IMG/VR virus record: IMGVR_UViG_3300045988_117466 | Span: 64,001 to 128,000 of that record | Reading direction: 5' to 3' (one strand) | Source of the DNA: a virus | Length of the DNA stretch: 64,000 bases | Shown: positions 12,701 to 48,330 of the stretch, piece after piece | Numbering within the stretch: the first letter of the stretch is position 1 | How the letters are laid out: every line of letters begins with the position of its first letter | Program-made: the position numbers and the translations under genes | The notes under the pieces: model-generated | Told to the model about the DNA's origin: nothing | Databases searched by the model: none | The model's input: the letters and a program-made list of their open reading frames with translations, nothing else

Positions 12701-13177
12701 CCAACACTCTTTAAAGCTTCATCGTAATCATTAACAGCAGAAGTAAGATCATGAACATTTTCTGCTTTAGCTGTCCAAAGATCAGTAGCAGCAGAAAGAT
12801 TTTCAATCTTTACTTCAATGAAATCAAAAGCTTTACCTATCTTATTAAGATAATTTTCAAGAGCTGATTTCTTAGATTTGGTTTTCTTCTTACCATTCCC
12901 AGAACCAGACTTACCAGAACCGGTTTTAGATTTACTAGAAGAAGTAGTTTTCTTCTTTTTACCTACAGTAGTTTTACTACCATTAGATTTAATTTTAATT
13001 CCAGCAGAGTTAGCATGAGCAGATCCATGAGCAAATGCTCCTTCACCACCAACAATCTTAGCTCTACTTCCAGTTTTTCCTTTGTTTAGGAGTTCCTTTG
13101 TTTGTAGGTGATTAAATACTATATCACCACGTTTGAGGTTCACAAATTCTGGGCCTTGAGACCCTACTGTAAACCAT
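9760..13177 (-). CDS. Tape measure protein, exon 3 (5' end is a best guess)
   Basis: Frame is open from 13188. It has no SD and only a GTG at 13143. It opens ..GSQGPEFVNLKRGDIVFNHLQT.., a TMP motif. Long coiled coil, Big_2-like Ig segment (SVSPASITLAPGESKTVTV). Confidence 0.6.
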
Positions 13178-13320
13178 CTATTACCACGTCAATTATGTTT
13201 TCATCGGTTCGCAACACCGACAAGAGTTTTCACTCCTCATGCTTTCACATGAGTTCAGACTATATCTTTTACCTGATTTTATTGTATGTATGTTTTGTTT
13301 GTTTTTTATTTGTGGGTATT

Positions 13321-13355
13321 AAAAAAGAGCAGAAGTAAAATTACTTTTGCTCTTC
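13321..13355 (-). terminator. Intrinsic terminator after the intron A cargo genes
   Basis: GAAGAGCAAAAGTA-loop-TACTTCTGCTCTTTTTT on the minus strand. Confidence 0.6.
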
Positions 13356-13380
13356 GGTAGAGGTTAAATTAATTTGTTTA

Positions 13381-14268
13381 TTATGCTCCTATACTTCGCC
13401 ATTTGCCTTTTGACCATTTGCAAATTTCTTCATCATCTATACAAAGGACATATTTTTTATTCCCGATTTTACAATTACAATGAATCTCTTCATCTCGGAT
13501 ATCCCACCATGTTAAAGATCCTTTGATTTTAAAATTTACCTTAGTCCATGTGCCAGGTTTGAGATCGATGTATTTTTTATTCCCTGTTAGTTTTAAGTTT
13601 CTGTCATATTTTTTGTAATCACAATCTAAAGAATAAGCACCTTTAGAATAAATACGAATTTTTTTATTACTTGCGTTAAAAAGCTTTGTTTTAAAAATAT
13701 TTGATCGAGTATCGTATTTATGCAACCAGCCGTTCATATGAATGCTTTTATATGGTTTTACAATTACGGAAATTGTTTTTTTAAAAGTTGTTGTTTTGTC
13801 CCAGGCGTTTTTAATTATATGATTGTTTAAGTCATCATCATAGTTCCCATTTTCTCCATAGCGATAATCATCATATACAGCAAAATGGTCTTCATAACAA
13901 TCAACACTTAATGTTATTTTGGATTTACCAAATTTCTTTGCATCAACATATGTATATAAATCTTCAACTCCAATTCCTTCATAAGAGTCTAAGGATATAT
14001 TTTTATTAGATCTTGACCATGAAATTGAATTAACATCCAAAGTGTATCCACCCTCTTCATCACCATAGTGCTTCCATAGCGTAGCATCATTTTTCATAAA
14101 TTCCCCATTATAGTATAGCTTAGGAGTAATTTTTTTCATCTGTCCATAATACATTGTAATAGTTTTAGGGACAGAGATACTGAAACCTGCTTGAGCGCTT
14201 TTGGTGTTAATAATCCATAAAAAACTAAACACTAATATAAAGGACATTAATTTTAAAAATTTTTTCAC
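13381..14268 (-). CDS. Secreted protein (intron A cargo)
   Basis: GTG at 14268 after GGAGGAGGG. Signal peptide VKKFLKLMSFILVFSFLWIINTKSAQA. Cys-rich C-terminus. No nuclease motif. Confidence 0.55.
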   Translation of the reverse strand: MKKFLKLMSFILVFSFLWIINTKSAQAGFSISVPKTITMYYGQMKKITPKLYYNGEFMKNDATLWKHYGDEEGGYTLDVNSISWSRSNKNISLDSYEGIGVEDLYTYVDAKKFGKSKITLSVDCYEDHFAVYDDYRYGENGNYDDDLNNHIIKNAWDKTTTFKKTISVIVKPYKSIHMNGWLHKYDTRSNIFKTKLFNASNKKIRIYSKGAYSLDCDYKKYDRNLKLTGNKKYIDLKPGTWTKVNFKIKGSLTWWDIRDEEIHCNCKIGNKKYVLCIDDEEICKWSKGKWRSIGA

Positions 14269-14284
14269 AATAGCACCCTCCTCC

Positions 14285-15154
14285 TTAAAATTCCTTTGTA
14301 ATCGGTTTTGTGAATGGTGTTTCACTTTCATAATAAGTATATTGCCCAGGGGATACCTTATCAGAATTTCCATAAGAAACTATTTCCATTTTGACAATCT
14401 TGTCCTTTGTTTCAAAACTGCTTTCTTCCCACATAGATTGATATGCTTTTAAATTATAGTAGTATAGAGATTGATCGCTTACTACGGTTCCATTTTTATC
14501 ATAAAAACGAATATCAATATTGGCCATATCATAATCATAGTCTGTTAGATTTTTGATTTTTATTCTATATGTCCGATATCCGTATGTAGATGCTTTGACT
14601 TCAATTTTTTCAATTTTATACGTGTCATCTATAAGCGTGGCTCCTTTCGGACAATATCCATTCTCTTTTATAAGTTCGTCATATGATTTCTTATCCCCTT
14701 TGGTTGTAAAAGAAAGATGTGTCTGATCAACTAACTTTTTTAGAATTTCCGCACGCTGGCTATTGTATACATAATAATTGTATTGTATCTTAGTCGGAGC
14801 ACTGGTGTAATCATCAAATAAATCATTTTGTGTATTTAAGGTTTTAATATATTCAGAAATTAAATTTTGTGTATTCTTGTTTTCGAATTGGATTTTAGTT
14901 TCTGAATATTTGTTTAGTGGTTTTAATTCAGTAGCGATATACTTTTGCATCATAGCTGCGTAGTCAGATTGAGATTGATTACTATCATCGGTCTTATCAC
15001 TAATCTCCCATCTTTTTTCGAGCCCAGTTTTTAAATCATTTGCTACTTGTTTGTCTGTGATTTTGGCTTCTTTTTGAGGAGCATCTTTCCCACAAGCACA
15101 AAATAAACATAAACTTGTAAGAAGCATACATCCAATTAAAATTTTCTTTTTCAT
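14285..15154 (-). CDS. Lipoprotein (intron A cargo)
   Basis: ATG at 15154, 7 nt after GGAGGG. MKKKILIGCMLLTSLCLFCAC-GKD is a lipobox-like signal. TATAAT lies at 15192-15187 on the minus strand. Confidence 0.65.
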   Translation of the reverse strand: MKKKILIGCMLLTSLCLFCACGKDAPQKEAKITDKQVANDLKTGLEKRWEISDKTDDSNQSQSDYAAMMQKYIATELKPLNKYSETKIQFENKNTQNLISEYIKTLNTQNDLFDDYTSAPTKIQYNYYVYNSQRAEILKKLVDQTHLSFTTKGDKKSYDELIKENGYCPKGATLIDDTYKIEKIEVKASTYGYRTYRIKIKNLTDYDYDMANIDIRFYDKNGTVVSDQSLYYYNLKAYQSMWEESSFETKDKIVKMEIVSYGNSDKVSPGQYTYYESETPFTKPITKEF

Positions 15155-15542
15155 ACATTTTCCCTCCATAATTTATTTATAAAGCAATTATACATTATTT
15201 GACATGTTTTTCATAGAGAGAATATTTGTTTATCATATTTATCAGGTAATTTATCATTTCGATTTAAACATTACTGTACCGCCATTAGCTTGCGGCTCTA
15301 CTCCTCATAAGAGGATAGTCGTTGAACCTTATCCTATTCGGATCTTGGCTGCTGATTGTCCATTGTAGCAGAAGCAGGGGATTTAACCTCGCTTCCATAT
15401 AATTAATTCTTTTTACTTTCGTAGCGTTCACATCTAGGCATATTTCATCCTTCTGTTGTAGCTTAATTATCTTTAAGACTTTCCAGCAATTAGATAAATT
15501 TTCACATATGTATTACTACATAAGGTCGCATATGTGGTTTAT

Positions 15543-18500
15543 ACGACAAGTTCGTCTCCTAATTCTCCTGTAAGAGCTCGTTCATCTTGTTTTAATCCCC
15601 AATCGCCACCATTAGCATGAGCATCTCCAGCAGATGATTTGAGCTTATCCGTTTTCTCTTGTAAATATTTGTTCTTTTCAGCCTGCACAACAGGATTAAT
15701 TTCTGATAAATCAGAGATTTTTGTTGTTCCCATCGCAAGAGCACGGCTTCCAAGCTTCTTAATTGTTCCGTGAGCAAAAGCACCAAATTCTTCAATATCA
15801 TCAAGCTCATTGTCGTACCAGTCTGTTAAGTCATCAACAGTACCTTGAGCGAAAGCATTTGAATATGGAATGAAAGATCCGTGTGCATTTGCTGTACCAT
15901 GGGCTTTGCCTTTCTTTTTTTTCTTTCCTGAGCTTTTCTTACCTCCTGAGGGCTCAGAAGGAGTACTACCAGTAACGAAATCAACAATTCGAGTGATATG
16001 TTTTGCTGCCCATCCTGCGATTGTTCCATCAGCAAGAGAGGTGTCCGCCTTAAGTTGTGCAGTGTTTGTAACTTTTTGGCTTTTCCATTCCTGAACTTTT
16101 TGATTCGCTTCAGTAATATCTCCTTTAAGATGTCCGGTTTTATCAACCTCAATCCCAAGGTATTCTAAAAGCTTTTGATTAGCTTTAGAAGCATCTACGT
16201 CTAATTTTCCTTCTTTGTCAATTGGAATATTTAAAAAATCAGCTATTTCTTTGGTGGCTTTTTTAGTATCTGCATCAACTTTAACGGTTGTAGACTTCTT
16301 TCCGCCTTTGCCAAGATTATCAATATCTTGTTTTGCCTTTTTGGTATTAGCCTTTACTTCAATAGTAACTTGACCTTTTTTCTTATGTTTATTGTATTCA
16401 TCAACAAGACGTTTAATCTCTTTATCAATCTTATCATTGCCAGTTTTTTCTACGGTATTATCTTTGCCAACCTTAAGTCCAGATTTTAACTTATTAAGTT
16501 GAGTGTTTAATCCAGATTTTGTTTTGATTTGCTTTCTAAAAACACCATTATCACTTTTGCCACTGACCATATTGGCAGTTTCTTTTTCAAGTTTAGATAC
16601 AGTTGTGTTTAAATTTTTGATTCTGCTTTTTAATTTACTTTGAGCTTCATTAAGTTTTTTCTTTGCACTTGCTTTATCATCGTCAGTTTTAGCATCTTTC
16701 CAAGTATCATAAGCATTGCTATAATCCTTTTGAGCTTTCTGTACAGAATCTCTAGCAGATTTAACTTTTTGATAAGAATTTTTCTTCCAGGATTCATATT
16801 TTTCGGTAGAATCTATAGCGTAATGGTTTTTGTCAGCTGTTGATTTAGCATTTGTAATAATTGAGTTACCATATTCAAACGCCTCTTCAGAATACTTATT
16901 ACCATATTTGTTTACAAGCTTTTTATCATTGGAATCAACAGCTCCTTCAAATTTGCTTTCTGCATCTTTAAATTCAGCCTTATCCTGAGCAATCTCAATC
17001 TCAAACTTTAACTTCTTGACCATCTCATCTGGGATATCTTCGCCAGCGTTTTTCAGTTTAAGAATCTGCTGTCTGTAATCCTCAATCTGTTCTCCTAATG
17101 CTGTTTTACCAGCACCATCTTTCATATTTTTCCATTTATCAACCAGTTGGTCAACATAACTTTCAGCTTTTTCGTACTGTTCTGTAACAGATTTAAAATC
17201 AATCTTACCACCATAATCTTTTAAACGATTCAGTACAGCTTCGAAAGGTTCAATACCCATACCCATTGCTTTAGCGGCAGTAGCAGTATTAGTGATCTTT
17301 CCAGAATATGTACCTTCAGCAGTTTTCTTTAAAGTACCAAAATCAGTATTAGCTTTTTGGGATTTGGCAGATAAATCATCTAAGAATTTAACCAGACCGC
17401 TATCATCAGAAGTAAAATACTTAGTAGTCTTAGCCCATGTCTTATCAAAAGTAGCAGCATCAGTCTTACCAGATGAACTCATAACACTTGTCAATGTTTT
17501 GAAATCATCTGTTCCAATAAGTCCTTTGTCACGTTCTTTCTTCTGAGCATTGAATGCTTCACGCATTGCTAAGTAAGTATCACCAGAGTCAGCTGTTTCT
17601 TTTGCTTGAAGATAATCACTCCAAGTAGACTGAGAGTTTGCCTGATTGATTAATTTAAGACGCTCTTTCAACTGATCAAGACTACCTGTCCATTTCTCAG
17701 TTTTAGAATTTAAGATATCAAAGGCTTGAGATGCTTCAGTAAGATTCAAACCATCAATGAAAGATTGAGTATCTTTATTATCACCAAGCTTTTCCTTGAT
17801 ATCTTCAATCATTGATTGAACATCTTTACCATCTTTTAAAAATCCTTCAAAATTTCCTTTATCGTCTAATTTGAAATCAACATTAAAAGAATCAGCCAAA
17901 GATTTGTTTAATTGCTCAATACTAACCCCATCATCTGTGGCAGCCTCTTTAAGCTTATCATAAGCATCTTTGGTATTATTGAGCCAATTCTGAACACCCT
18001 TGTTACTAGATTTATCATAGCTTTTAATAAACTTATCAAGAGCTCCTTGTGCTTTATCATCTTTAGCAAATTTCTTTGCTGCAGCAATAGTATTTTCTCG
18101 TTGTTCCTTGACCCAATCTTTATCTTTTAGATTATCTCTAGTCGCAGTATCTATGTTATAAGTATTAGATCCTAATCCTGTAAGGAAGCTTTGAGCACGA
18201 CTACCCAATTTATTATAATCAGTAATACTACCTGGCAATGAAGTGGCAATATCTTGATTGTATTGATCAAGAGCCTTTTGGGTTTTAGTAAGCCCAATTT
18301 TATATTTTTGAGCATAACCTGAGATTTTAGCGATTTCTTCACTAAGATCAGTTCCCTTAGGTAAATAGTCTTCAGTTTTATCCAAGATCTGCTTATATGA
18401 ACCAATAAATTTGTTCATGTCAGCTTGTTTGTATAAATCGAAGGTTTGATCCTTTGGTAATTTCAACACATCTTTGGCAGCCTTGTTGAAAGCAGTAGTT

Positions 18501-19531
18501 AACTGGCTGGTTTTATCGCCTTGCAGACCGTTTCTTAACTGAGTAGTTAAGGTGTCCATGTCGTTGCCCCAGAACTTATCAACACCAGTTCCAGAAGCTT
18601 TCTTAACATTCTCTATGTTACCTTCAACTAACTTGTCCCAAGTTTCATCAGAAGCATATTTCTTTTGTGCGCTTTCTTGTTTCTTCTCCTGAGATTCAAT
18701 CGCTTTGTCCATCAATCCAGATGTTTTAGCAATTGCATTTCCTTCTGCATCATATCCTGAAATAAGAGAAGGAGTAGTATCTAAAATTTCCTTGCGGATA
18801 CTTAAGAATCTCTCATAAGAAGAAGTATCTAAACTGATGTTATTACCGTATTCGTCTACACCTTTGGATAAAGATTCAAATTCTACTTTATTCCCTTTGA
18901 GAGTGGAAATATTACTTTGGACATCAGACATTTTGTCCTGATAAGTGCTACGGGTTTTATCAGCTTTTTCTACCTTATCTTTGTCATAAGTAGCAGCTTT
19001 CTTAATGTTTTCAATTCCTTTAGAAAGAGCACTTCCTGCAAATTCCATGATTAGACTTGCACCTAATCCTAATAACACATTTGCGGCAAAAGCACCAGCC
19101 TTAGCAGCTATGCCAGAAGCTTTAACATTTTCCACGAAACCTGCTAATCCACCTGCGGCAGATTGAGCAATGCTACCAGATTTTTCAACCTCTTTGTTGA
19201 ATTCTTCAAGACCTTTTCCATAACTATTTTTCTTATCACTAAGATCATAATTATTTTGCTTAGCTTGACCGTAAAGAGTACTAGCTGTATCACGACCTTT
19301 TTCAGTCTTCATTTCATCCTGAAGTCGCTTAAACATGTCCTCTTTTTCTTTGGTAGACTTATTACCAAAGATTTCAGGAACCATGCTGTTACTAAAGAAA
19401 TCCTGCAATCTACTTTGATCAGACTGCATATTCTCATAATTAGCCTTACGTCTTGTAGGACTAAGTGCATTCAGAATAGCACTACCAATTGGAAATTCAT
19501 TTTTACCAGTTTCTTTATTGTACTGTACAAG
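15543..19531 (-). CDS. Tape measure protein, exon 2 (ends are best guesses)
   Basis: Opens at TTG 19534 with no SD. K/E/D-rich coiled coil. Ends ..DAHANGGDWGLKQDERALTGELGDELVV and then stops. Confidence 0.6.
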
Positions 19532-19901
19532 CAAACTGTTTACTCAAGGGCAGGGAAATACCCTATTTTCACACTGGTAAAATATGTATTTGACAATCAC
19601 TAATGCAATATTCTATACTAATTATGTAACAAGAAATATGTATCATATCTCAAAGTAATAACACACATGGGGCTCACAATTCAGTGAGCCTTTTGTGTAT
19701 CTGAAATTAAAGGAGAAGAGAGGTTCATAAAGATACCTCTTTTTCGCAATTAACCTTGCAATATTTGGAAACATAAGTTATAATTAGAAACATCATGGAA
19801 TAATTAGTTCCCCAATTAATTATTTTCATACTAAAGGCATTCCTAGGAGGTAGGGATGCCTTTTCTCCATTTATGGGGTAACGATTCGTTCACCCATCAA
19901 A

Positions 19902-20708
19902 TTAACTTTCTAACTGATCTTCCAGATCCTTAATCTTAGAATCTCTAAATGCAATTTTCTTTCCAGTACTACGATGATTTGTTTCTATGTATCTACGTTT
20001 CAGATTGTTTAGTACATACTCTGCAGTCATTCTGTACATTGGATTTAGAGAACCAGAAGTTTCAATAATCGATTCAAGTTTATCATCGATCATTGTTACG
20101 ATTTTCTGCTTATACTCAGTTGCATTTAGTTTTCTATGATACTCATAGCGGTCTTTCTTTTTTAAATGAACGTGAACATCAATGATCTTATCAACAGTGG
20201 CTTCCAGATTTGTGTAATCAGATTCTAAAAGAACACGATCAATGTTGCGTACAGAATATTTAATTTTATCTGCATCATACTGTCTCTGAAGCTGACATTC
20301 ATCTGAAACTGCTACATCATATAGATCGTTATTATCTTGCTGAAGTTGTGTGATCAGCTCAATCATTCTCTCAAAAGCATCTGTGTATCTAGCTGTAAAG
20401 ATAAGAGCTTTGTTACCAGTAAACTTGTTTACCAGCATTGCAAATCCTTTACGATCAATATAATACATAGGACGCTCCTGGTTATTTAAATCAAGATAAG
20501 AGCCGAGGGAAAAATTTCCGGCGGCTAATTCAGGGATAACTTCTATAAAATGACGAATCTTTTTCATTACATCTGCATGGTCTTTCCCATAAGTCTCAGC
20601 CACATTGAGAGAAGTGGTGTACACATCACCATTGATCTCTTCAAGACCAAATTCCTCATTAATTTCTGCGATTTCACATTCAATAGCTTTCTTTGTTTCT
20701 TTTAACAT
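19902..20708 (-). CDS. Rha-family phage regulatory protein (intron B cargo)
   Basis: ..TSLNVAETYGKDHADVMKKIRHF..NFSLGSYLDLNNQERPMYYIDRKGFAMLVNKFTGNKALIFTARY.. matches the Rha/pRha pattern. Confidence 0.7.
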   Translation of the reverse strand: MLKETKKAIECEIAEINEEFGLEEINGDVYTTSLNVAETYGKDHADVMKKIRHFIEVIPELAAGNFSLGSYLDLNNQERPMYYIDRKGFAMLVNKFTGNKALIFTARYTDAFERMIELITQLQQDNNDLYDVAVSDECQLQRQYDADKIKYSVRNIDRVLLESDYTNLEATVDKIIDVHVHLKKKDRYEYHRKLNATEYKQKIVTMIDDKLESIIETSGSLNPMYRMTAEYVLNNLKRRYIETNHRSTGKKIAFRDSKIKDLEDQLES

Positions 20709-20743
20709 AATTCAATTTCTCCTTTTAATATAAACTTAATTTC

Positions 20744-20769
20744 AAAAGGGGTCGCATTTCACGACCCCC
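20744..20769 (-). terminator. Hairpin terminator between the Bro and Rha genes
   Basis: GGGGTCG-TGAAATG-CGACCCC followed by TTTT on the minus strand. Confidence 0.5.
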
Positions 20770-20793
20770 TATCAACAACAATCTCACCAAACT

Positions 20794-21600
20794 TTAATCT
20801 TCAAGATCCCCAACAACTCTGTAAACAAGTTTCTGACCTTTACCAGTTACATAAGTCTGTGGAACAATCACATTGCAAATCACATGTTCACCAACTTCAA
20901 AACATCCGTTCTCAACGTATCTCTGATATGGCATGTTGTCCCGCATCAGGATTCCATTACTTCTCAGAATCTCAAAAAGACGATTCCTTCCAATGTCATA
21001 TCCATCATTCTGCAACAATTTGGCCATTGTGTTCATGTCGATCGTATCAGAAGAAGCAGTAACACATCTTGCAAAATCTACATCTTCTTTGGAAGCTTCA
21101 AGTTCTCCACGAAGCTCTGCGATTGTAGCTTGCTGAATTTCTAATGCTTTGAGTACAAACTCAGCTTCAGACAGATTTTTATATGGAATGTATCCACCTG
21201 TACGTCTGATCTGTGGAAGAACTTCAGATGTTACCCATCTTTTGAAACGATGTAATTTTTCAATTCTCTCTTCAATAAGGGGGTCATTTTGTGACACCCC
21301 CTTTGCTTTAGCAGGTTGCATTAAGAATAATAATGAATATAGTCCTGATTCATTAAGAACTGTGATGTTTTGCATTCCTCCAGCGGTTTGAATTTTTGCC
21401 ATTGTTTTGTCAGCTTTGTCAATTCTACGCAAGCTACGCTTGTGATTTGTATCTCCAAAAGCTATGCATACATCTTTTCCAACAAACCAAGGTTCATTGT
21501 CAATCTCAACGCATCTGATTGATCCAAATTCGTCATTTACGAAGTTCATGATCTGATTGTTATTTCCTACTTCATTTTCTGCTTTTGTTAAATTTGCCAT
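20794..21600 (-). CDS. Bro-N / KilAC antirepressor-type protein (intron B cargo)
   Basis: ..FGSIRCVEIDNEPWFVGKDVCIAFG..TAGGMQNITVLNESGLYSLLF..FKRWVTSEVLPQIRRTGGY.. is classic Bro-N. The C-terminal half is KilAC-like. Confidence 0.8.
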   Translation of the reverse strand: MANLTKAENEVGNNNQIMNFVNDEFGSIRCVEIDNEPWFVGKDVCIAFGDTNHKRSLRRIDKADKTMAKIQTAGGMQNITVLNESGLYSLLFLMQPAKAKGVSQNDPLIEERIEKLHRFKRWVTSEVLPQIRRTGGYIPYKNLSEAEFVLKALEIQQATIAELRGELEASKEDVDFARCVTASSDTIDMNTMAKLLQNDGYDIGRNRLFEILRSNGILMRDNMPYQRYVENGCFEVGEHVICNVIVPQTYVTGKGQKLVYRVVGDLED

Positions 21601-21670
21601 ATTAAATTCTCCTTTTCTTCAGAAAGGTGCACCAAATGGCATAGAACAGATGGTGCTGATGATTTGCTTA

Positions 21671-21759
21671 TCCTTCTATGCATATATGGCTAATTTACTA
21701 CCCCTTTAAAACACCAGGCTCTACCTAATGTTTTAAGACTCAATTAATGTGGTAAGTCT
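21671..21759 (-). promoter_or_regulatory. Conserved hairpin cassette, copy 1 (upstream of the Bro gene)
   Basis: TTACCACATTAATTGAG, a long imperfect hairpin, then GGGGTAGTAAATTAGCCATATATGCATAGAAGGATAAG. Two more copies lie at 48054-48144 and 48238-48330. Confidence 0.5.
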
Positions 21760-22233
21760 GCTAGAGCAGTATAAAAAGAGTATTAAATTATGTTAATGAG
21801 TATTTATAATATATCATATAAAATTCATTTCCCTATGTGCAAGCATGTTTCCATGCTGATAATTTTCTAGCGGCACATTCGCATACAGTTCTGATCATCC
21901 CTTTCTGATGTCACTCGTAAGGTGAGTTAACCAGATTCCCATTATGATCGATGGACGTTCCTCTAATATAGAGGCTTCGCTGCGGATTCTGTATAAATAT
22001 TGATCTTATTACTATATCTTAGGAATTACCCCTTGCCCTTAATACATCACTGTACTAAGTTAGTAATCAATATCGTTTAACAGTTCCCGTACATAAATTA
22101 TCAAAAAGTATTTCAGTTTCGGTTGTTTTCTAAGCAATCTCTTATTTGTATCACCATTTCGATACAAACTCGTTCTGTGTTACCACTAGATTGCTCTGGG
22201 CATTGTACATGAGGACAACTGATAATTTGCCCT

Positions 22234-25200
22234 ACCCAGCTTTCCTTTCGCTCCTGCGACTCCTAAAGCACCCATAAAGGCTGTTCTAAGAAGCCCAGCT
22301 TTAGTTACTAAATTTGTTATTTGAGTTCCAGCATCTACAAGTCCTTTGATAAAATCAGAAGAAATAGAAGTGTTCCACATTTCTTGGAAACTTGCTGTCA
22401 GCTGATCAACTTTACCTTGGATGGAATCAAGTTGAGTTTCGTTTTCACGAAGAGCTGATCCTTCTGAGTTTTGTGTTTCGTTGTAGACTTTTTCAAGCAT
22501 CTCTGGCTTCTGTAAAATACTGGCAACAATATTAGCTCTATTTTTTCCTGCAATTTTCTCTAAAATAGAAGCTTGTTTAAGGTCACCACCATCGGTAGAA
22601 CCAATTTCGCTCCAGATCTTACCCAATCCAAGTAAAAATTCATATGGATTTTTATAAGATCCATCATCTTTTAATAAATCAAAGCCTTTGTAGTCGTTTG
22701 ATGCTACTTTAGTTTGATTTTTAATGAGATCTCTCAACTGAGATGTGTTCTGAATGTAACCATCAACATCTTCACCTGCTTCTTGAAGCACATTCATATC
22801 AGTGCCTCGAATTCTTAAGGATACTGTTTTTAAACCAGCTCCAACGCTCTCAGGATTTTGCACGACGGAATTCCCAACTGTAGTAAGAGCAACTGACTGT
22901 TCATAGTTAGCACCTGCCGCCTGTAAAGCACTAGCAGATCTCTGTAATGAACTAGCAATCTCATCTGATGAAATAGGCTCTAAGTTACCGATATTATTCA
23001 AAACATCAACAACATTCTCTACATCATCAGCACCCTTATCGAATCCCTGCATAATAGAAATCAATGCATTAGTAGCATCATCTACCTGCTCAAATTCTGA
23101 TACATTCATGAGAATACCTGTCCACTTAGACATCTTCTCAGAATCTTGTGTGTTATAACCTAATCTAGCCCAGTCAGCAGTAGATTTGGTTAATTCCACA
23201 GCATCTCTACCGATATCTTTACCAGTAGCATACATATCTTTTTCGACAGTAGCATAAACATCACTCGTATCACTTGTGACTTTCTTTAACTCTGTCATTG
23301 CAGCATCCATTTCTTTGATGCTTTCAATTCCTTGTTGGAATCCTTGCCATACGACATCGATTCCACCCATTGAGATCAAGTACTTACTTAACTTAGTAAC
23401 TTCTTGACCCATATCTCCAACAATTTGTCCGAACAAACTCTTATATTCAGAACGACTCTTAAGCTGTGATCTAGCAATACCAGTATCCTGATTAAAATTA
23501 ATAGCATACTTTTCAAGCTTTCCATCATCTCTTGATCTTGCTTTGATATAAGCAGCCATTCCATTTCTACCCATACTGGTTTCAAGAATGTTACTGTTTA
23601 CACCAGAAGCTCTAAATAATTCTTCAGCTTTAGCTTCATTGAAATCATTTAAGGATAATCCTTCTCCGATAACAGTTCCCTGATTGTTCTGGAGCTTAAA
23701 TTGGTTTCTAAGTCTACCATGTTCAGTAAGCTCAGCGTTCAGTCTATTAAGCTCTCTAATATCTTCCTCAATTTCTTTATTGTCAAAGAAAACATCTCCA
23801 CTATGTTTTTCTTTTAAATCTCTAATTCGGTTAACTGTAGCTTCAACCTTAGTCGCAAATTCTGTTGTATATTGTTCAAGATCTTGACTAACAATGGTCT
23901 TTGATAAAGCTCTGTCAGCAGCATTTTTAACACGATCAGATTTAGGATTAGTATTCCCTAATGCTGTACCATCGTTTGCTCCACCAACATTTCCACCGGC
24001 TAAAACCTTGTTCATGTTCTTCAAGCCAGTAGCAATCTCACCAGTAAGATTAAATTTCTTATTTAAGTTATCAACCAGTCTTGTAACTTCACGAATTGAA
24101 CTACCAATACCAGCAAAAGCACCTGCGATCTTAGCAGAATAAGCAGTAGACTTGTCAGCTAGATTAGCAATCTTATTTGTCATAGTCTCAATATCAGAAG
24201 CTTTCTTGTCTGTAAAAGACTGTCCTGTATTGAATTTAACTTTTAAATCAAGATTCTTTTTCAGATCATTGATAATCTTCTCAACAGTAACTAAATCGTC
24301 TAATACAGCATCAGTATTGATACCAACTTTAATAGGCTCAGAAGCTTTTTCTCTTAAAGAAGTAAGCTTGCTTTCGGCTTGTGTTAACTCTTCATCATTA
24401 ACATTGATGTCAATTTTTGTGTCTCCGCTGTTAGAATCCTCTTTAAATTTTTGAGTTGAAGTAATAGCTTTCTCAAGATCTTCAACATTGCCTTTAAAAT
24501 TAACCGCAACGTCAATAGCATCCTTAGAGCGAAGTTCATTTACTTGTTGAAGAATGTTATCAATATTCTCTGTATTAGCTTTAAAATTAATAGTAATATC
24601 TATATTTTCTTTTGATCTTAGTTCATTAATTTCTTGTAAAATTGTATTGAACTCGGAATCGTTTGCTTTAAGATTAACAACGATATCTTTGCCTTCGTAA
24701 GAAGCAATCTTTTCATCAACCTTAGCCAATGCAGATTCTAACTGAGAAGTGTCAGCAGTAACTTTTACAGAAGATTCTTTAGGGTGTTCACTTTCTGTAA
24801 CACTGTTTGTCTTAGTTTCAGTAACATTTCTGCTTGGAAATTCACGAATTGCATCTTTGTTTTTGCTTAACCATTCACGGCTTTCTTGAGACCAAGGAGT
24901 TTCAATAGTAGCTCCTTTTTCAGCTTTAATAGATGTGTATGTATCAACAGTTTTAACAGCTTCTTGAAGACCTTTGGCTTCCTCGGCATAGATATTTTCT
25001 CCGTTCTTAATCTTTTCATTGAATTTCTGGATATATTCTCTAGCGCTTTGGAAAGTACTGATCAGGTCTTTGTTACTCATGTCTTTCATGTCAGCAGGCA
25101 TTTCAAAATCTTTATCAACTTCCCTTTGATGGAGTTCTAATTTTTTAACTGCTTCAGATAAGAATTGTGTAATATTTTTATCAACAGCATGAGTAGTAGA

Positions 25201-26307
25201 ACCTTCTTCTGGCTGATAATTGCTTAGTATTTTACTGTAATACTCGGCTTTCTGTAATTCCTCATCGGTAAGAGTTTCACCTTTGGATTGTTTTTCCATC
25301 AGGTTCTTACTGCCGGCTTTTGCACCGTTGTATTGTTGAGGACTAATTGCTTGTCCTTCTTGAAATTTATATGGTTTACTAGAGTCAAACCCAGAAATCA
25401 AAATACCTTCTTGGGCTAAAATATCACTCCATTGTTTATTGAATTGGTTTTTAAGTTTATTGGTTACTCCTGTAGTCTTTTTGATATTTCTATCAGTGCT
25501 AGTCATAGCCTGAGTAAGAGCCTTATTAACCTGTTTAACAACATCCTCTTCGATCGGAGATAAAATATTTTTTAAGTCGATTCCCTGGGCTTGGAACAGG
25601 CTTTTATAACCTTCTGTACCTGCAAAATCAGTTTGTCCTGTTAGCAATTCTTTTATAAACTTTTGCCTAGAAGTAATAGTATTTCTTAACTCACCAGCCT
25701 GTTTGAGCATTTCATCGTTCTTACTCCAATCAGAATTTGACATTAAACCATGCAGTTCTTCAAAAGCTTTTCCAATATCTTCTTGAGCTAGCATTCCAGC
25801 CATTGCATATTCTTTAAAATCATTTAAAGAGATACCATTTTTAGAATTACCATGTAATTCGTTATATTGTGTTTTAGATTCGTTGTAAAAATCTTTATAT
25901 TTATCTTGCTTATAAGTCTTTTTTTGTACTTCGTGTACCTTAGAAGCAGCTCTTGTGGCAAGATCACTGTCCTCGTAGCTACGTTTAGAAACCTTGCTTA
26001 AATTGTCGTTCTTAATTTTTTCAAGATCATTGTAAGTAGTTTTAAGATTCTTTAACTTCTTTTCTGCATCGGCCAAATCTTTAGATTCATATACAAATTG
26101 AAAATTTGTTAATCCAGTTTTATCAATATAACTTCTGATGCTTTTAGCAACTTTATCCATAGAGGATTTATTGATATTAGCACCAATAGGTACTTGGACT
26201 TGTTTAAAACCATTTACTACTTCGCTTTTAGCTTTTTCTAAAGAGGCTTGATCAACGTCAACCCCCATAGAGGCAGTAAAAGAAATTACTTGTGTAGTTT
26301 CTGCCAT
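22234..26307 (-). CDS. Tape measure protein, exon 1
   Basis: ATG at 26307 with GGGGGTG SD. TP901-type TMP core (..KSTADWARLGYNT..LQAAGANYEQSVALTTVGNS..GAGLKTVSLRIRG..). The 15 codons after 22234 (RANYQLSSCTMPRAI-stop) are read as intronic. Confidence 0.8.
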
Positions 26308-45692: not shown

Positions 45693-45702
45693 TTGGACAT
45701 AG

Positions 45703-45775
<73 letters not shown>

Positions 45776-45959
45776 ACAAAAAGAGTACATTGTAACTACC
45801 AACAATGTACTCAAATTTAGAAAAGAGGTATAAATTATGATTCCTACAAGAAATCTTAATAGCTTTGTAAATCTTTCTGAGGTATGAAACAACAATAGAA
45901 AAGCGCAATAATCAAAACTTCACAAGAAAGGAGATAATATGATTCCTCAGAAAGATTAA

Positions 45960-46031
45960 CAGGGATAACTGGATTTGAACCAGTGAATACAGCAGTCAAA
46001 GTGCTGTGCCTTACCGCTTGGCGATATCCCT
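45960..46031 (-). tRNA. tRNA-Gln (UUG)
   Basis: Acceptor AGGGATA/TATCCCT, anticodon loop CTTTGAC, T-loop TTCAAAT. Confidence 0.85.
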
Positions 46032-46644
46032 ATATGTATTTTAATTTTAAAGCAGGTCTTCACCTTACAGTCATTTGTGGAATAGTTTGTTCTGCAACAT
46101 AGTAGATAAGTCTGAGCTTTGAGGAGCGACCTCTAACTTCTTACCTAAGTCTAAAAGACCAGTTCTATGACATGATCAATACATGCAATGTCAACCCGCC
46201 ATTCAGAATTAAGTTTTATTGTTATATACTCTATTAGCATATATATTCATTTTGAATTTGAACTTACCCTTAACTGACTTGAGCGACATACCAGCGACTT
46301 TTCTTATACACTGTCTTTTGAACAGCTTCACATCAAACTACATTATTTGGCTTTTCCACCTTTTACGTACCTGCCAGAGTACGCATTGAAGTGGATTATT
46401 CTCCACAGGAGCGTCTATTGTTGTAGCGAAAAGTTCTGTGCGTTAACCAGACCAAAATGCTGCACAATATCCATTTGCTTGAGAGTTTCTCTCTTGTCCA
46501 TATCAAATCACTCCGACATAAAAAGAGACACAAAGAACGTATCCGTACAATGTATCTCTCCAATTCGACATATGTGCCTAGAATATTTCTCGGACTCATG
46601 GCATTGAGTTTTATAACCGAGTTGCTTATGTTTTAAAATACAAA
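46032..46644 (-). ncRNA. ORF-free 613-nt insert in the tRNA array; candidate large structured RNA (strand assumed)
   Basis: No credible ORF on either strand. Flanked directly by tRNA-Gln and tRNA-Trp. Several local hairpins (GTGGA..TCCAC, ACGTAC..GTACGT). Confidence 0.3.
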
Positions 46645-46716
46645 CACCCTAAGCTGGATTTGAACCAGCACGAACGGTTTTGGAGACCGTCATTCTACCA
46701 ACTAAATTATTAGGGC
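46645..46716 (-). tRNA. tRNA-Trp (CCA)
   Basis: Acceptor GCCCTAA/TTAGGGT, anticodon loop CTCCAAA, T-loop TTCAAAT. Confidence 0.85.
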
Positions 46717-46723
46717 GATATTA

Positions 46724-46797
46724 CTGACATGACAGGACTCGAACCTGCAACACCAACGTCCGTAGCGTTGTGCTCTGTCCAGTTGAGCTACATGTCA
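46724..46797 (-). tRNA. tRNA-Arg (ACG)
   Basis: Acceptor TGACATG/CATGTCA, anticodon loop CTACGGA, T-loop TTCGAGT. Confidence 0.85.
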
Positions 46798-46841
46798 TTA
46801 AAATTCGACCTCAATCCACATAGGATTTTGAGGTACTTTCG

Positions 46842-46925
46842 TCCCTGTTGAGGGAATCGAACCCACTCGTGACCGAAGCCATCTGATTTACAGTCAGATC
46901 CGCCTCCTTAGCGGGATAAACAGGG
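46842..46925 (-). tRNA. tRNA-Tyr (GUA), long variable arm
   Basis: Acceptor CCCTGTT/AACAGGG, anticodon loop CTGTAAA, variable arm TGGCTTCGGTCA. Confidence 0.8.
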
Positions 46926-46968
46926 ATATAAGCCCGTGAGCTCGAAAGACATCACAGGACAACCTAAA

Positions 46969-47054
46969 CGCTGCGACAAGGATTCGAACCTTGAGGTCAC
47001 TAGGACACAATAGTTTTCAAGACTACGCCGTTATAACCATTTCGGTACCGCAGC
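46969..47054 (-). tRNA. tRNA-Ser (UGA), long variable arm
   Basis: Acceptor GCTGCGG/TCGCAGC, anticodon loop CTTGAAA, T-loop TTCGAAT. Confidence 0.85.
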
Positions 47055-47059
47055 AAAAG

Positions 47060-47151
47060 CGTACAGAGTGGGCTACGACCCCACGTTACATGTATTCGCA
47101 TGTAAACCCAATTAGCAGTCGGGCGCCTTAAACCAACTCAGCCATCTGTAC
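47060..47151 (-). tRNA. tRNA-Ser (GCU), long variable arm, atypical T-loop
   Basis: Acceptor GTACAGA/TCTGTAC, anticodon loop CTGCTAA. T-loop is GTCGTAG rather than TTCRANN. Confidence 0.7.
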
Positions 47152-47335: not shown

Positions 47336-47719
47336 TTACTTGACTAAGTATACTTTTCGGTATTTCTTCCCAAATTTTCTAACTTGGCTGTGAGAAGAGA
47401 AGTACATGTCGATGTGTTTTCCTTTTACGCCGCCTCCGACATCTTCGGCTACCAGTGTCTTACCACCAATTCTCACTTTGCTACCGAGTTTAATTTTTCT
47501 TCGATCGACTGAGATAGTTCTACCGGCTTTTGCTCTGCGTCCAGAAGCAGTACGATTTCCCCATCCACCAGAACAACTACGACAACCACAGTAAGCTGTG
47601 ATTTTGTATGTTCCTAAACATTTGACTTTTTTGCTCTTTGCTGGAACAGAAGAAGTAAGTCCTCTAACTGTGATCAACAAGGCCATTAACAGTGCGATCA
47701 TTGAAATTCTCTTTTTCAT
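47336..47719 (-). CDS. 3D-domain (MltA/RlpA-like barrel) exported cell-wall-active protein
   Basis: Signal/TM MKKRISMIALLMALLITV. ..TAYCGC..GNRTASGRRAKAGRTISVDRRKIKLGSKVRIGGKTLVAEDVGGGVKGKHIDMYF.. matches the 3D-domain pattern. Confidence 0.7.
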   Translation of the reverse strand: MKKRISMIALLMALLITVRGLTSSVPAKSKKVKCLGTYKITAYCGCRSCSGGWGNRTASGRRAKAGRTISVDRRKIKLGSKVRIGGKTLVAEDVGGGVKGKHIDMYFSSHSQVRKFGKKYRKVYLVK

Positions 47720-48047: not shown

Positions 48048-48053
48048 TGTCTA

Positions 48054-48144
48054 TATCCTTCCTTTCATATATCACTATTTTACCACCCCTTCAAAACACT
48101 AGGTTTTACCTGGGTTTCTGAGGGGTATTTAATGTGGTAATTCT
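48054..48144 (-). promoter_or_regulatory. Conserved hairpin cassette, copy 3
   Basis: TTACCACATTAAATAC, hairpin, GGGGTGGTAAAATAGTGATATATGAAAGGAAGGATA. Confidence 0.5.
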
Positions 48145-48237
48145 GCTCACCACTCAAAAATTTGTCTTAAAATACACTTTTTAGTATATATAATTAACTT
48201 TATTTTCTTTTTGAAAATCTGATCTTTTGAGCATTTC

Positions 48238-48330
48238 CTTATCCTTCCTTCCATATATCACTATTTTACCACCCCCTGAAAAACGTAGGTAGAACCTAGC
48301 GTTTTCAGGGTCAATTAATGTGGTAATTCT
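48238..48330 (-). promoter_or_regulatory. Conserved hairpin cassette, copy 2
   Basis: TTACCACATTAATTGAC, hairpin CCCTGAAAACGCTAGG/CCTACGTTTTTCAGGG, GGTGGTAAAATAGTGATATATGGAAGGAAGGATAAGG. Confidence 0.5.

Follow-up and report, generated by a model that had tools for sequence, protein, structure and literature searches.

We analyzed a stretch of 64,000 nucleotides (nt) from a virus (IMG/VR record IMGVR_UViG_3300045988_117466, positions 64,001 to 128,000 of that record), hereafter the window, in which a 2.7-kb segment of the minus strand, designated intron B, separates two long open reading frames (ORFs) that encode parts of a tape-measure protein and carries two cargo genes, one of the Bro-N/KilAC type and one of the Rha type. 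All genes in this part of the window lie on the minus strand, and the features discussed below are collected in Table 1, where related loci and contigs are designated by L numbers. The upstream ORF, as annotated, occupies 22186–26307 (1,373 aa), and its stop codon (22186–22188) falls within the intron. The downstream ORF (15539–19534, 1,331 aa) has TTG as its first codon and no Shine-Dalgarno (SD) sequence, and its frame is open from four codons upstream of the splice site. Conceptual splicing joins ...GAKGKLG to LVQYNKETG..., yielding the junction-spanning peptide ...GAKGKLGLVQYNK..., and the insertion point lies after a conserved ...K-x-L-G codon of the tape-measure gene.

We compared the fused protein with uninterrupted homologs of 3,600–4,900 aa (L054, L058, L109, L073 and L072), and found that single BLASTP high-scoring segment pairs (HSPs) span the junction, which corresponds to residue 1358 of the fusion, and extend 270–630 residues beyond it. 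The uninterrupted homologs carry the motif ...K(R/K)LG exactly at the break point. Because these homologs align in single HSPs across the junction, the two tape-measure ORFs are parts of one gene. The original prediction, made from the sequence of the window, had described the segment as an intron and had proposed comparative genomics of the insertion site as a check; homologs lacking the insert proved to be continuous across the point, rather than being encoded as two separate genes.

The exon and intron ends carry splice-site pairings of the group I type. The end of exon 1, CUGGGU, forms P1 with GCCCAG (intron positions 33–38), the last U being in a U.G pair at the splice site, and UACAA, directly 5΄ of the P1 guide segment, forms P10 with the start of exon 2, (C)UUGUA. 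The last base of the intron is G (19532), and the junction is in frame. The CTGGGT/CTTGTA junction named in the original prediction is therefore backed by P1, P10 and the terminal G. At least eight intron lineages occupy the same site, each with a P1 including the U.G pair, an adjacent P10 and a terminal G fitted to its own exons. In other phages, whose tape-measure proteins are 33–55% identical, the insert starts after the homologous GGU codon and the guide is altered to match: GUGGGU/GCCCAC in L001, UGGGGU/GCCCCA in L059, GCGGGU/GCCCGC in L050, GUAGGU/GCCUAC in L056, GUCGGU/GCCGAC in L080, and other variants elsewhere. From the hexamer 5΄ of the guide we could predict the position of the 3΄ splice site, and in L001, L050, L055, L056 and L060 it was located accordingly, beside a G and in phase 0; the exon 2 starts predicted from P10 were AUAUUC (L001 and L056), AUUUUU (L050), GUUUUU (L060) and CUUGCAC (L055). 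Overall, the guide matched the lineage's own exons in L001, L050, L055, L056, L059/L060, L002/L088 and others, with every junction in phase 0. A different arrangement was observed in L002 (8478–8560) and its relatives L082–L096, where the exon ends in GGC rather than GGU; in this lineage a C opposite A at the 5΄ splice site (AUGUCGG(C)/(A)CCGACAU) would replace the U.G pair, and P10 would be AUAUUC/GAACGU.

The whole predicted ribozyme core lies within intron positions 1–350 (22233–21885) and contains a hairpin in the P1 loop, a three-way junction at P2 that includes a hairpin with a GUAA tetraloop, P4, an extended P5, P6, P7, P8 and the 5΄ strand of P9.0. The original prediction had singled out a core-like block upstream of the cargo. 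Its sequence ATCCGCAGCGAAGCC occurs once in the window (21973–21987, minus strand), compared with 0.01 occurrences expected by chance, and the 17-mer ATCCGCAGCGAAGCCTC is present in 35 viral contigs and lies inside an RF00028 match at 7 of the 20 loci scanned. In the group I introns recognized by Rfam, this 17-mer corresponds to the 3΄ strand of P4 (the Q element) plus the 5΄ strand of P6, directly upstream of the R element; the block is thus a genuine core element, with an identical Q in Rfam-recognized introns. An earlier assignment of AAGAUAUAGU (~22020) as the S element, with UUACUA/UAGUAA as P7, was rejected because alignment of L025 to RF00028 established Q-P6-R as the order of the elements; that pairing is part of the extended P5. 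Of the 14 cluster representatives obtained in a scan with an R-element pattern, 9 were discarded as chance matches in coding DNA.

To assess covariation, we aligned eight ribozymes (window, L047, L220, L001, L059, L060, L050 and L146) and scored a structure derived from the window sequence that comprised P1, the P1-loop hairpin, P2, the GNRA hairpin, P2b, P4, P5/5a/5b, P6, P7 and P8. In this alignment, 84.7% of the cells were paired, compared with 35–45% when partners were slid by 1–3 columns, and compensatory changes were found at 31 of 68 pairs, compared with 6–11 in the slid controls (a value as high was reached in 0 of 500 shuffles). P4, P6, P7 and P8 were 83–100% paired, with compensatory changes. 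P1 was 95.8% paired, with the U.G pair in 8/8, and covaried in the seven others, and P7 was 100% paired with three compensatory pairs, appearing in three compensated versions (GAUCAU/AUGAUC, GACUAU/AUAGUC and GACUUU/AAAGUC). Directly 3΄ of the P7 3΄ strand, AACUGU (21890–21885) is complementary to ACAGUU, located 2 nt upstream of the terminal G, and this P9.0 pairing also covaries (GGACUGU/ACAGUCC in L050; GGACU/AGUUC in L001 and L056). Since P9.0 joins the 3΄ side of the core to the terminal ~8 nt, the intervening 2.35 kb forms a single peripheral cargo loop. These comparisons, all at the sequence level, confirm the predicted assignment of 19532–22233 (minus strand) to an intron that divides one tape-measure gene, and the intron is of the group I type and IA-like.

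The principal alternative for the locus as a whole is that no intron exists, the tape measure being two separate proteins and 19532–22233 an ordinary intergenic accessory island. Gene callers stop almost every exon 1 homolog at this point, Rfam returns no intron match, and the island has promoter- and terminator-like signals of its own, all of which would fit such an arrangement. However, exon 2 lacks a start site, intron-less relatives are continuous through the point, guide complementarity to both exons is kept by compensatory change in at least eight lineages, a covarying RNA of 350 nt with group I core motifs is conserved, and the read-through tails of truncated homologs (RAN.., RAK.., RDK..) correspond to the translated P1-loop hairpin. 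We accordingly consider this alternative highly improbable. Nearly all of 120 database homologs of exon 1 (33–98% identity) are called as ending 0–66 residues past a KN[VLF][GD]-type junction, and in many of them the tail (for example RAK.., RDKMYSLSF or KDKMF) is the translation of the conserved P1-loop hairpin. This pattern suggests that tape-measure genes split by introns are widely annotated, wrongly, as encoding complete 'TP901 family' proteins.

The tape-measure relatives were found mainly in metagenome-assembled genomes of Clostridia (Lachnospiraceae, Kineothrix and Ruminococcus) and in viral contigs of 70–170 kb. Contig L039 (IMGVR_UViG_3300045988_099687, 121.7 kb) does not differ from the window in the final 290 codons of exon 1 or in the initial 420 nt of the intron. 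When the 10.9-kb tape-measure region was compared with GenBank phages by megablast, no relative was detected. The best explanation is that intron B resides in a phage of ~120 kb that infects gut Clostridia and has a giant, multi-exon tape measure. A second intron ('Intron A') was observed in the same gene at 13150–15541 (minus strand), where it follows ...GELGDELV. Its elements include a td-like R element, UUCAACGACUAUCC, at ~15325 and an S element, AGAUAUAGUCUG, at ~13265, between which lie ORFs at 14285–15169 (lipoprotein-like) and 13381–14373 (with a signal peptide). Exon 3 reaches 9760, homologs run on past the end of exon 2, and the whole tape measure would comprise ~3,800 aa.

Both 268-aa cargo ORFs, together with the Bro-N/KilAC and Rha signatures attributed to them from the sequence alone, were reproduced using Pfam and PHROGs. 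For the first gene, the matches were PF02498 (Bro-N, E 9e-17), PF03374 (ANT/KilAC, E 4e-21) and phrog_130 ('anti-repressor Ant', E 9e-65), and its domain order, Bro-N then KilAC/ANT, is that of a putative antirepressor-like protein. For the Rha protein we found 73 homologs, nearly all with PF09669. The SD sequence claimed for each ORF is present, being of the AAAGGAG type and 7–8 nt before the ATG. The Rha protein, modeled with AlphaFold from an alignment of 37 sequences (mean pLDDT 86), has a winged-helix-like beta/alpha N-terminal domain and an all-helical C-terminal half. No nuclease domain was detected in either cargo protein using Pfam, PHROGs or PADLOC, and a PDB sequence search gave no match; a Foldseek search of the Rha model against the PDB returned nothing at E ≤ 0.001, and the model contains no nuclease-like fold. 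No transposase or TnpB genes of the IS200/605 or IS607 type were present among the ORFs of the window intron. As originally predicted, genes for antirepressor-type DNA-binding proteins sit in the usual place of a homing endonuclease gene; each has an SD sequence of its own, and plausible signals for transcription are present as well.

We further compared the cargo among 14 contigs whose ribozyme is 97.5–99.8% identical to that of the window (both intron ends are present in 9 of the 14), and found that it varies. In L027 the Bro-N gene is missing and the Rha gene directly follows the hairpin cassette described below, the Rha-domain gene of L028 and L004 is a short one (155-aa type) that differs from that of the window, and the intron of L016 contains an additional 500 nt, in which no convincing ORF was found. 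The Bro-N/KilAC gene occurs as three alleles, in which the Bro-N core is 35–40% identical, the leader 88–100% and the KilAC part 97–99%, and the exon flanks (45 nt on each side of the intron) differ at 0–2 positions among phages bearing these alleles. In SPbeta-like prophages, full-length Rha homologs (~55% identity) are encoded by free-standing genes located between those for the tube and the tape measure. At the same site in other lineages, the intron carries genes with GmrSD_N/DUF262, NYN, HEPN or DUF2513 domains, IS605 tnpA/tnpB, ToxN, KwaA or a lipoprotein; the IS605, GmrSD_N + NYN, ToxN, KwaA and HEPN genes among them are of defence or conflict type and lie within an intron of a structural gene. 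In L220, whose ribozyme is 75% identical to that of the window, a bay of >7 kb holds Rha, KwaA, a helix-turn-helix protein and Bro-N/ANT. The antirepressor-type pair is therefore an old but non-exclusive tenant of this intron lineage, since L220 holds Rha and Bro-N/ANT beside other genes.

These data bear on the possibility, also raised by the original prediction, that the Bro-N/KilAC and Rha proteins recognize the intron-less site as targeting subunits of a non-canonical homing system, with cleavage by another factor. The position of the cargo, which is that usually held by a homing endonuclease gene, the DNA-binding domains in both proteins, and the reappearance of the pair in the diverged lineage L220 would be compatible with such a role. 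However, neither a nuclease domain nor, for the Rha model, a nuclease fold was detected, and no part of the protein varies more than the domain presumed to recognize DNA, although the target site is nearly invariant. If this domain is exchanged and the site of insertion nevertheless remains the same, the protein is unlikely to be directed at that site. Moreover, the intron persists without the Bro-N gene or with a replaced Rha gene, unrelated cargo occupies the same site in other lineages, and homologs of the cargo also occur outside introns. We therefore rate DNA targeting for homing as very unlikely, and of the two roles originally proposed, that of regulators appears to be the better.

Upstream of the first cargo gene lies the hairpin cassette, which includes TTACCACATTAA and, as originally noted, recurs twice near 48.1–48.3 kb. 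The three copies of ~100 nt (21755–21660, 48326–48235 and 48140–48050) have a mean identity of 75%, with the long hairpin conserved, and in a scan of our collection the cassette was found only in contigs of this phage species, as the intron copy plus the tandem pair elsewhere in the genome. Each tandem copy has an intact extended –10-like box, TGGTAAAAT, and a GGAAGGA SD sequence; in the intron copy these signals are degraded (TAGTAAATT; ATG to ATC). The tandem copies lie upstream of a 3D-domain gene (47336–47719) and a cluster of tRNA genes and a ROOL RNA, and Pfam was uninformative for the genes around them. The ROOL RNA is full-length (RF03087, 303.7 bits; 46034–46645, minus strand, within 45702–47151) and is embedded among seven tRNA genes (Thr, Gln, Trp, Arg, Tyr, Ser and Ser).

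Two further elements were only partly as first described. A hairpin is indeed present between the cargo ORFs, but it is too T-poor to pass a terminator scan. Likewise, the ~360–370 nt downstream of the cargo fold far better than shuffled sequences (z = –4.7), but they do so as independent terminator-like hairpins and are not part of the ribozyme, whose core (P1–P8 and the P9.0 5΄ strand) is entirely upstream; pairing with that core is confined to the final ~8 nt of the intron. On the opposite strand of this region we found the extended –10 box TGGTAAAAT (19575–19583), a TTGACA-18-TATACT promoter (19590–19619) and a terminator (19669–19692) followed by a T run. In seven other lineages, an extended –10 box is located 10–50 nt from the 3΄ splice site in antisense orientation. 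In six of the seven it drives a gene for a double Zn-ribbon protein of 150–270 aa, and in L050 it precedes a lipoprotein-like gene. The Zn-ribbon proteins share an N-terminal CxxC..CxxC and a C-terminal CPxCGS..I.KIS...CxxCGY.W motif; the family had no PHROG match and, in Pfam, just a sub-threshold match to Zn_ribbon_IS1595. The window intron contains no such gene, and its antisense promoter-terminator pair looks like a remnant of the Zn-ribbon unit.

The same features could be read as those of a group I-derived intron that splices poorly in cis, in which either halves separated at the terminators trans-splice through P9.0 and P10, or the antisense transcript controls splicing or exon 2 expression. 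For such a reading speak the location of the entire core in the 5΄ 350 nt, with ~8 nt sufficing at the 3΄ end, the several terminator-like hairpins between the two, and the antisense extended –10 promoter near the 3΄ splice site, which is conserved in all lineages examined and persists without a gene in the window. The argument is purely structural, however; P9.0 and P10 comprise just 5–7 bp each, which is weak for association in trans, the inter-ORF hairpin fails the terminator scan, and IStrons, in which the cargo likewise follows the core, are spliced in cis (PMC4227781). We regard this alternative as unlikely.

Table 1. Coordinates of intron B, its exons, cargo and signals in the window, and of cargo and antisense genes in related loci
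Feature	Position	Strand	Basis or remarks
Tape-measure exon 1	22234..26307	-	PhageMin_Tail domain (Pfam); in-frame fusion with exon 2
Tape-measure exon 2	15539..19531	-	No credible start codon or SD
Intron B (predicted)	19532..22233	-	2,702 nt; P1/P10/terminal G; homologs continuous over junction; covariation
Internal guide sequence UACAAU-GCCCAG	22196..22207	-	P1 + P10 pairing, covarying with exons in other lineages
Complete ribozyme core (predicted)	21885..22233	-	Helix table; pair-count test on eight ribozymes
Q element (P4 3΄ strand UCCGCA), then P6 hairpin GCCUCU/AGAGG	21959..21988	-	The core-like block of the original prediction
P7 GAUCAU (21949-21944) / AUGAUC (21898-21893)	21893..21949	-	Encloses candidate P3 3΄ strand UGG and P8 (21934-21905)
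P9-region hairpin GCAUG-GAAA-CAUGC, GNRA loop	21843..21856	-	Read from sequence; stem also picked up on + strand
P9.0 3΄ strand ACAGUU (19539-19534) and terminal G (19532)	19532..19539	-	Complement of AACUGU 21890-21885
Sigma-70-like promoter TTAACA-17-TATACT	21768..21796	-	10/12 matches; directly upstream of cassette
Hairpin cassette	21660..21755	-	TTACCACATTAA, long imperfect hairpin, degenerate extended -10-like box, degenerate SD/ATG
Cargo gene 1, Bro-N + KilAC (Ant-type, antirepressor-like), 268 aa	20794..21600	-	Pfam, PHROGs
Inter-ORF hairpin GGGGTCG/CGACCCC, then TTTTGAAATT (RNA: GGGGUCG/CGACCCC, UUUUGAAAUU)	20741..20769	-	Weak terminator-like; read from sequence
Cargo gene 2, Rha-family, 268 aa	19902..20708	-	PF09669 Phage_pRha, E 7e-22 (Pfam)
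3΄ non-coding cargo loop	19540..19901	-	Stable terminator-like hairpins; absent or different in other lineages
Vestigial antisense unit, no ORF	19575..19692	+	Extended -10, promoter, intrinsic terminator
Two tandem cassette copies	48050..48326	-	Each followed by SD and tiny ORF (16 and 40 codons)
Relatives' cargo: IS605 tnpA + tnpB	L001:11388-12928
Relatives' cargo: GmrSD_N + NYN	L002:9199-11072
Relatives' cargo: ToxN	L219:11254-11781
Relatives' cargo: KwaA	L220:7054-7662
Relatives' cargo: HEPN (pEK499_p136)	L060:8482-9033
Relatives' antisense Zn-ribbon genes	L060:9038-9535, L055:11108-11563, L056:10828-11331, L088:11861-12319, L001:13178-13987, L002:12218-12700		Antisense to tape-measure gene, abutting 3΄ splice site

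Taken together, the reading that we favor, with a probability of roughly 0.7, is that of a group I intron with a cargo bay closed by P9.0, whose cargo consists of exchangeable accessory regulators and not of a homing apparatus. Splicing would be initiated by guanosine and proceed in two steps, joining the tape-measure halves at ...GAKGKLG/LVQYNKETG.... The cargo would be translated from its own SD sequences, on a transcript from the TTAACA-17-TATACT site (21796–21768) and/or on the intron RNA, whether still in the precursor or already excised. Both cargo proteins may be rapidly exchanging, moron-like accessory regulators with targets other than the tape-measure gene, and the intron may serve as a phenotypically neutral safe harbour that lets accessory genes sit inside an essential late gene. 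For intron B, both splicing and cargo expression are predicted from the sequence.

Several observations weigh against the favored reading. RF00028 gave no match at E ≤ 10 on 3.8 kb of the window or on a 481-nt sub-window, and no match reaching the gathering score in 10 related loci. P3 could be assigned as just 3 bp (CCG/UGG) in the window, L059 and L220. Terminator-like hairpins occur on the sense strand in the cargo and, if efficient, would stop transcription before exon 2. Promoter-like matches are no commoner than in shuffled sequence, and the sigma-70-like site is suggestive only. Finally, the recurrence of Rha with Bro-N/KilAC in the 75%-identical lineage L220 indicates a durable association. 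With regard to the first two points, RF00028 does match other introns with the same 17-mer, and P3 elsewhere has 6 bp (UCAUCG/UGGUGA in L001) or 5 bp (AAGCG/CGCUU in L050 and L146). Two other P3 candidates were rejected: AACCG/UGGUU overlaps P8 and UUUAU/AUGGG is all wobble, and neither is conserved across lineages. The sole Rfam matches in this region of the window (FMN and a snoRNA) were at chance level and were dismissed.

Phage group I introns are usually seen as carriers of one homing endonuclease gene, as in the classical introns of T4 (td, nrdB and nrdD), SPO1 and Twort, but group I introns with inserts other than endonuclease genes are also known. Intron B resembles the classical introns in its U.G pair, guide sequence and terminal G and in having ORFs with their own SD in a peripheral loop, and its relatives contain td-type R- and S-like core elements (GACUAU/AUAGUC). 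Unlike them, it carries genes for two non-nuclease DNA-binding proteins plus regulatory cassettes, and the genes are exchanged between near-identical phages. Group I introns in tape-measure genes have been reported from prophages of the Bacillus cereus group (TMP-IVS1/2/3; Tourasse and Kolsto 2008, PMC2504315). The TMP-IVS introns and intron B are alike in being group I (IA-type) introns of phage tape-measure genes, in that different introns adapt P1 and P10 to one site, and in that several copies lack a complete homing endonuclease gene (PMC2504315). The TMP-IVS introns are small and are found by standard models, whereas intron B is missed by RF00028 and contains a 2.35-kb multi-gene module; the section consulted names no non-endonuclease cargo for the TMP-IVS introns (PMC2504315). 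Set against the TMP-IVS introns, the intron B site is occupied in most of the relatives sampled.

In their layout, IStrons (CdISt1 and relatives) correspond to intron B, having a complete 5΄ group I ribozyme, a large coding insert downstream and a short 3΄ segment (PMC4227781), and the relative L001 even has IS605 tnpA/tnpB in its bay. Unlike in IStrons, the cargo of intron B is not an IS element and includes neither transposase nor TnpB, and its core has one hairpin between the P7 strands, where IStrons have P7.1 and P7.2. Intron B sits at one fixed homologous site, whereas IStrons are scattered in many copies. The 5΄ exon of intron B ends in GGGU, whereas IS200/605 elements insert beside a TTGAT-type target. 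With respect to the cargo itself, vibriophage ICP1 has interchangeable Rha-domain and Bro-N/KilAC genes beside its anti-PLE locus; in that hot spot, near conflict-related genes, both types behave as swappable accessory genes, although they lie outside any intron (PMC8263062). The literature searched here contained no report of group I introns carrying Bro-N/KilAC, Rha or GmrSD-, HEPN- or NYN-type genes. In principle the intron is ordinary, but its cargo of several exchangeable genes, the conservation of the antisense unit and the failure of Rfam to detect it are not.

A broader proposal, which we advance tentatively and hold at somewhat less than even odds, is that the window represents an unrecognized, Rfam-invisible family of group I introns at one tape-measure site in large phages infecting gut Clostridia. 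The loop closed by P9.0 would in this family be a heritable bay for independently transcribed conflict or regulatory genes, flanked at the 3΄ splice site by a conserved antisense promoter that usually drives a novel Zn-ribbon gene. The intron would be kept because it turns an essential late gene into a hot spot where insertions are safe, and expression of the cargo may be coupled to splicing through the antisense unit. The lineages collected here (window type, L220, L001, L059/L060, L050, L146 and others) provide enough covariation for a proper model. The architecture of the intron gives an accessory module of several fast-exchanging genes shelter within a structural gene that is essential, and in relatives the bay is occupied by defence-type genes. 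If this is general, many 'truncated' tape-measure genes in annotations of gut phages and prophages would be split by introns that standard RNA models miss, and such introns would be an overlooked class of hot spot for phage accessory genes.

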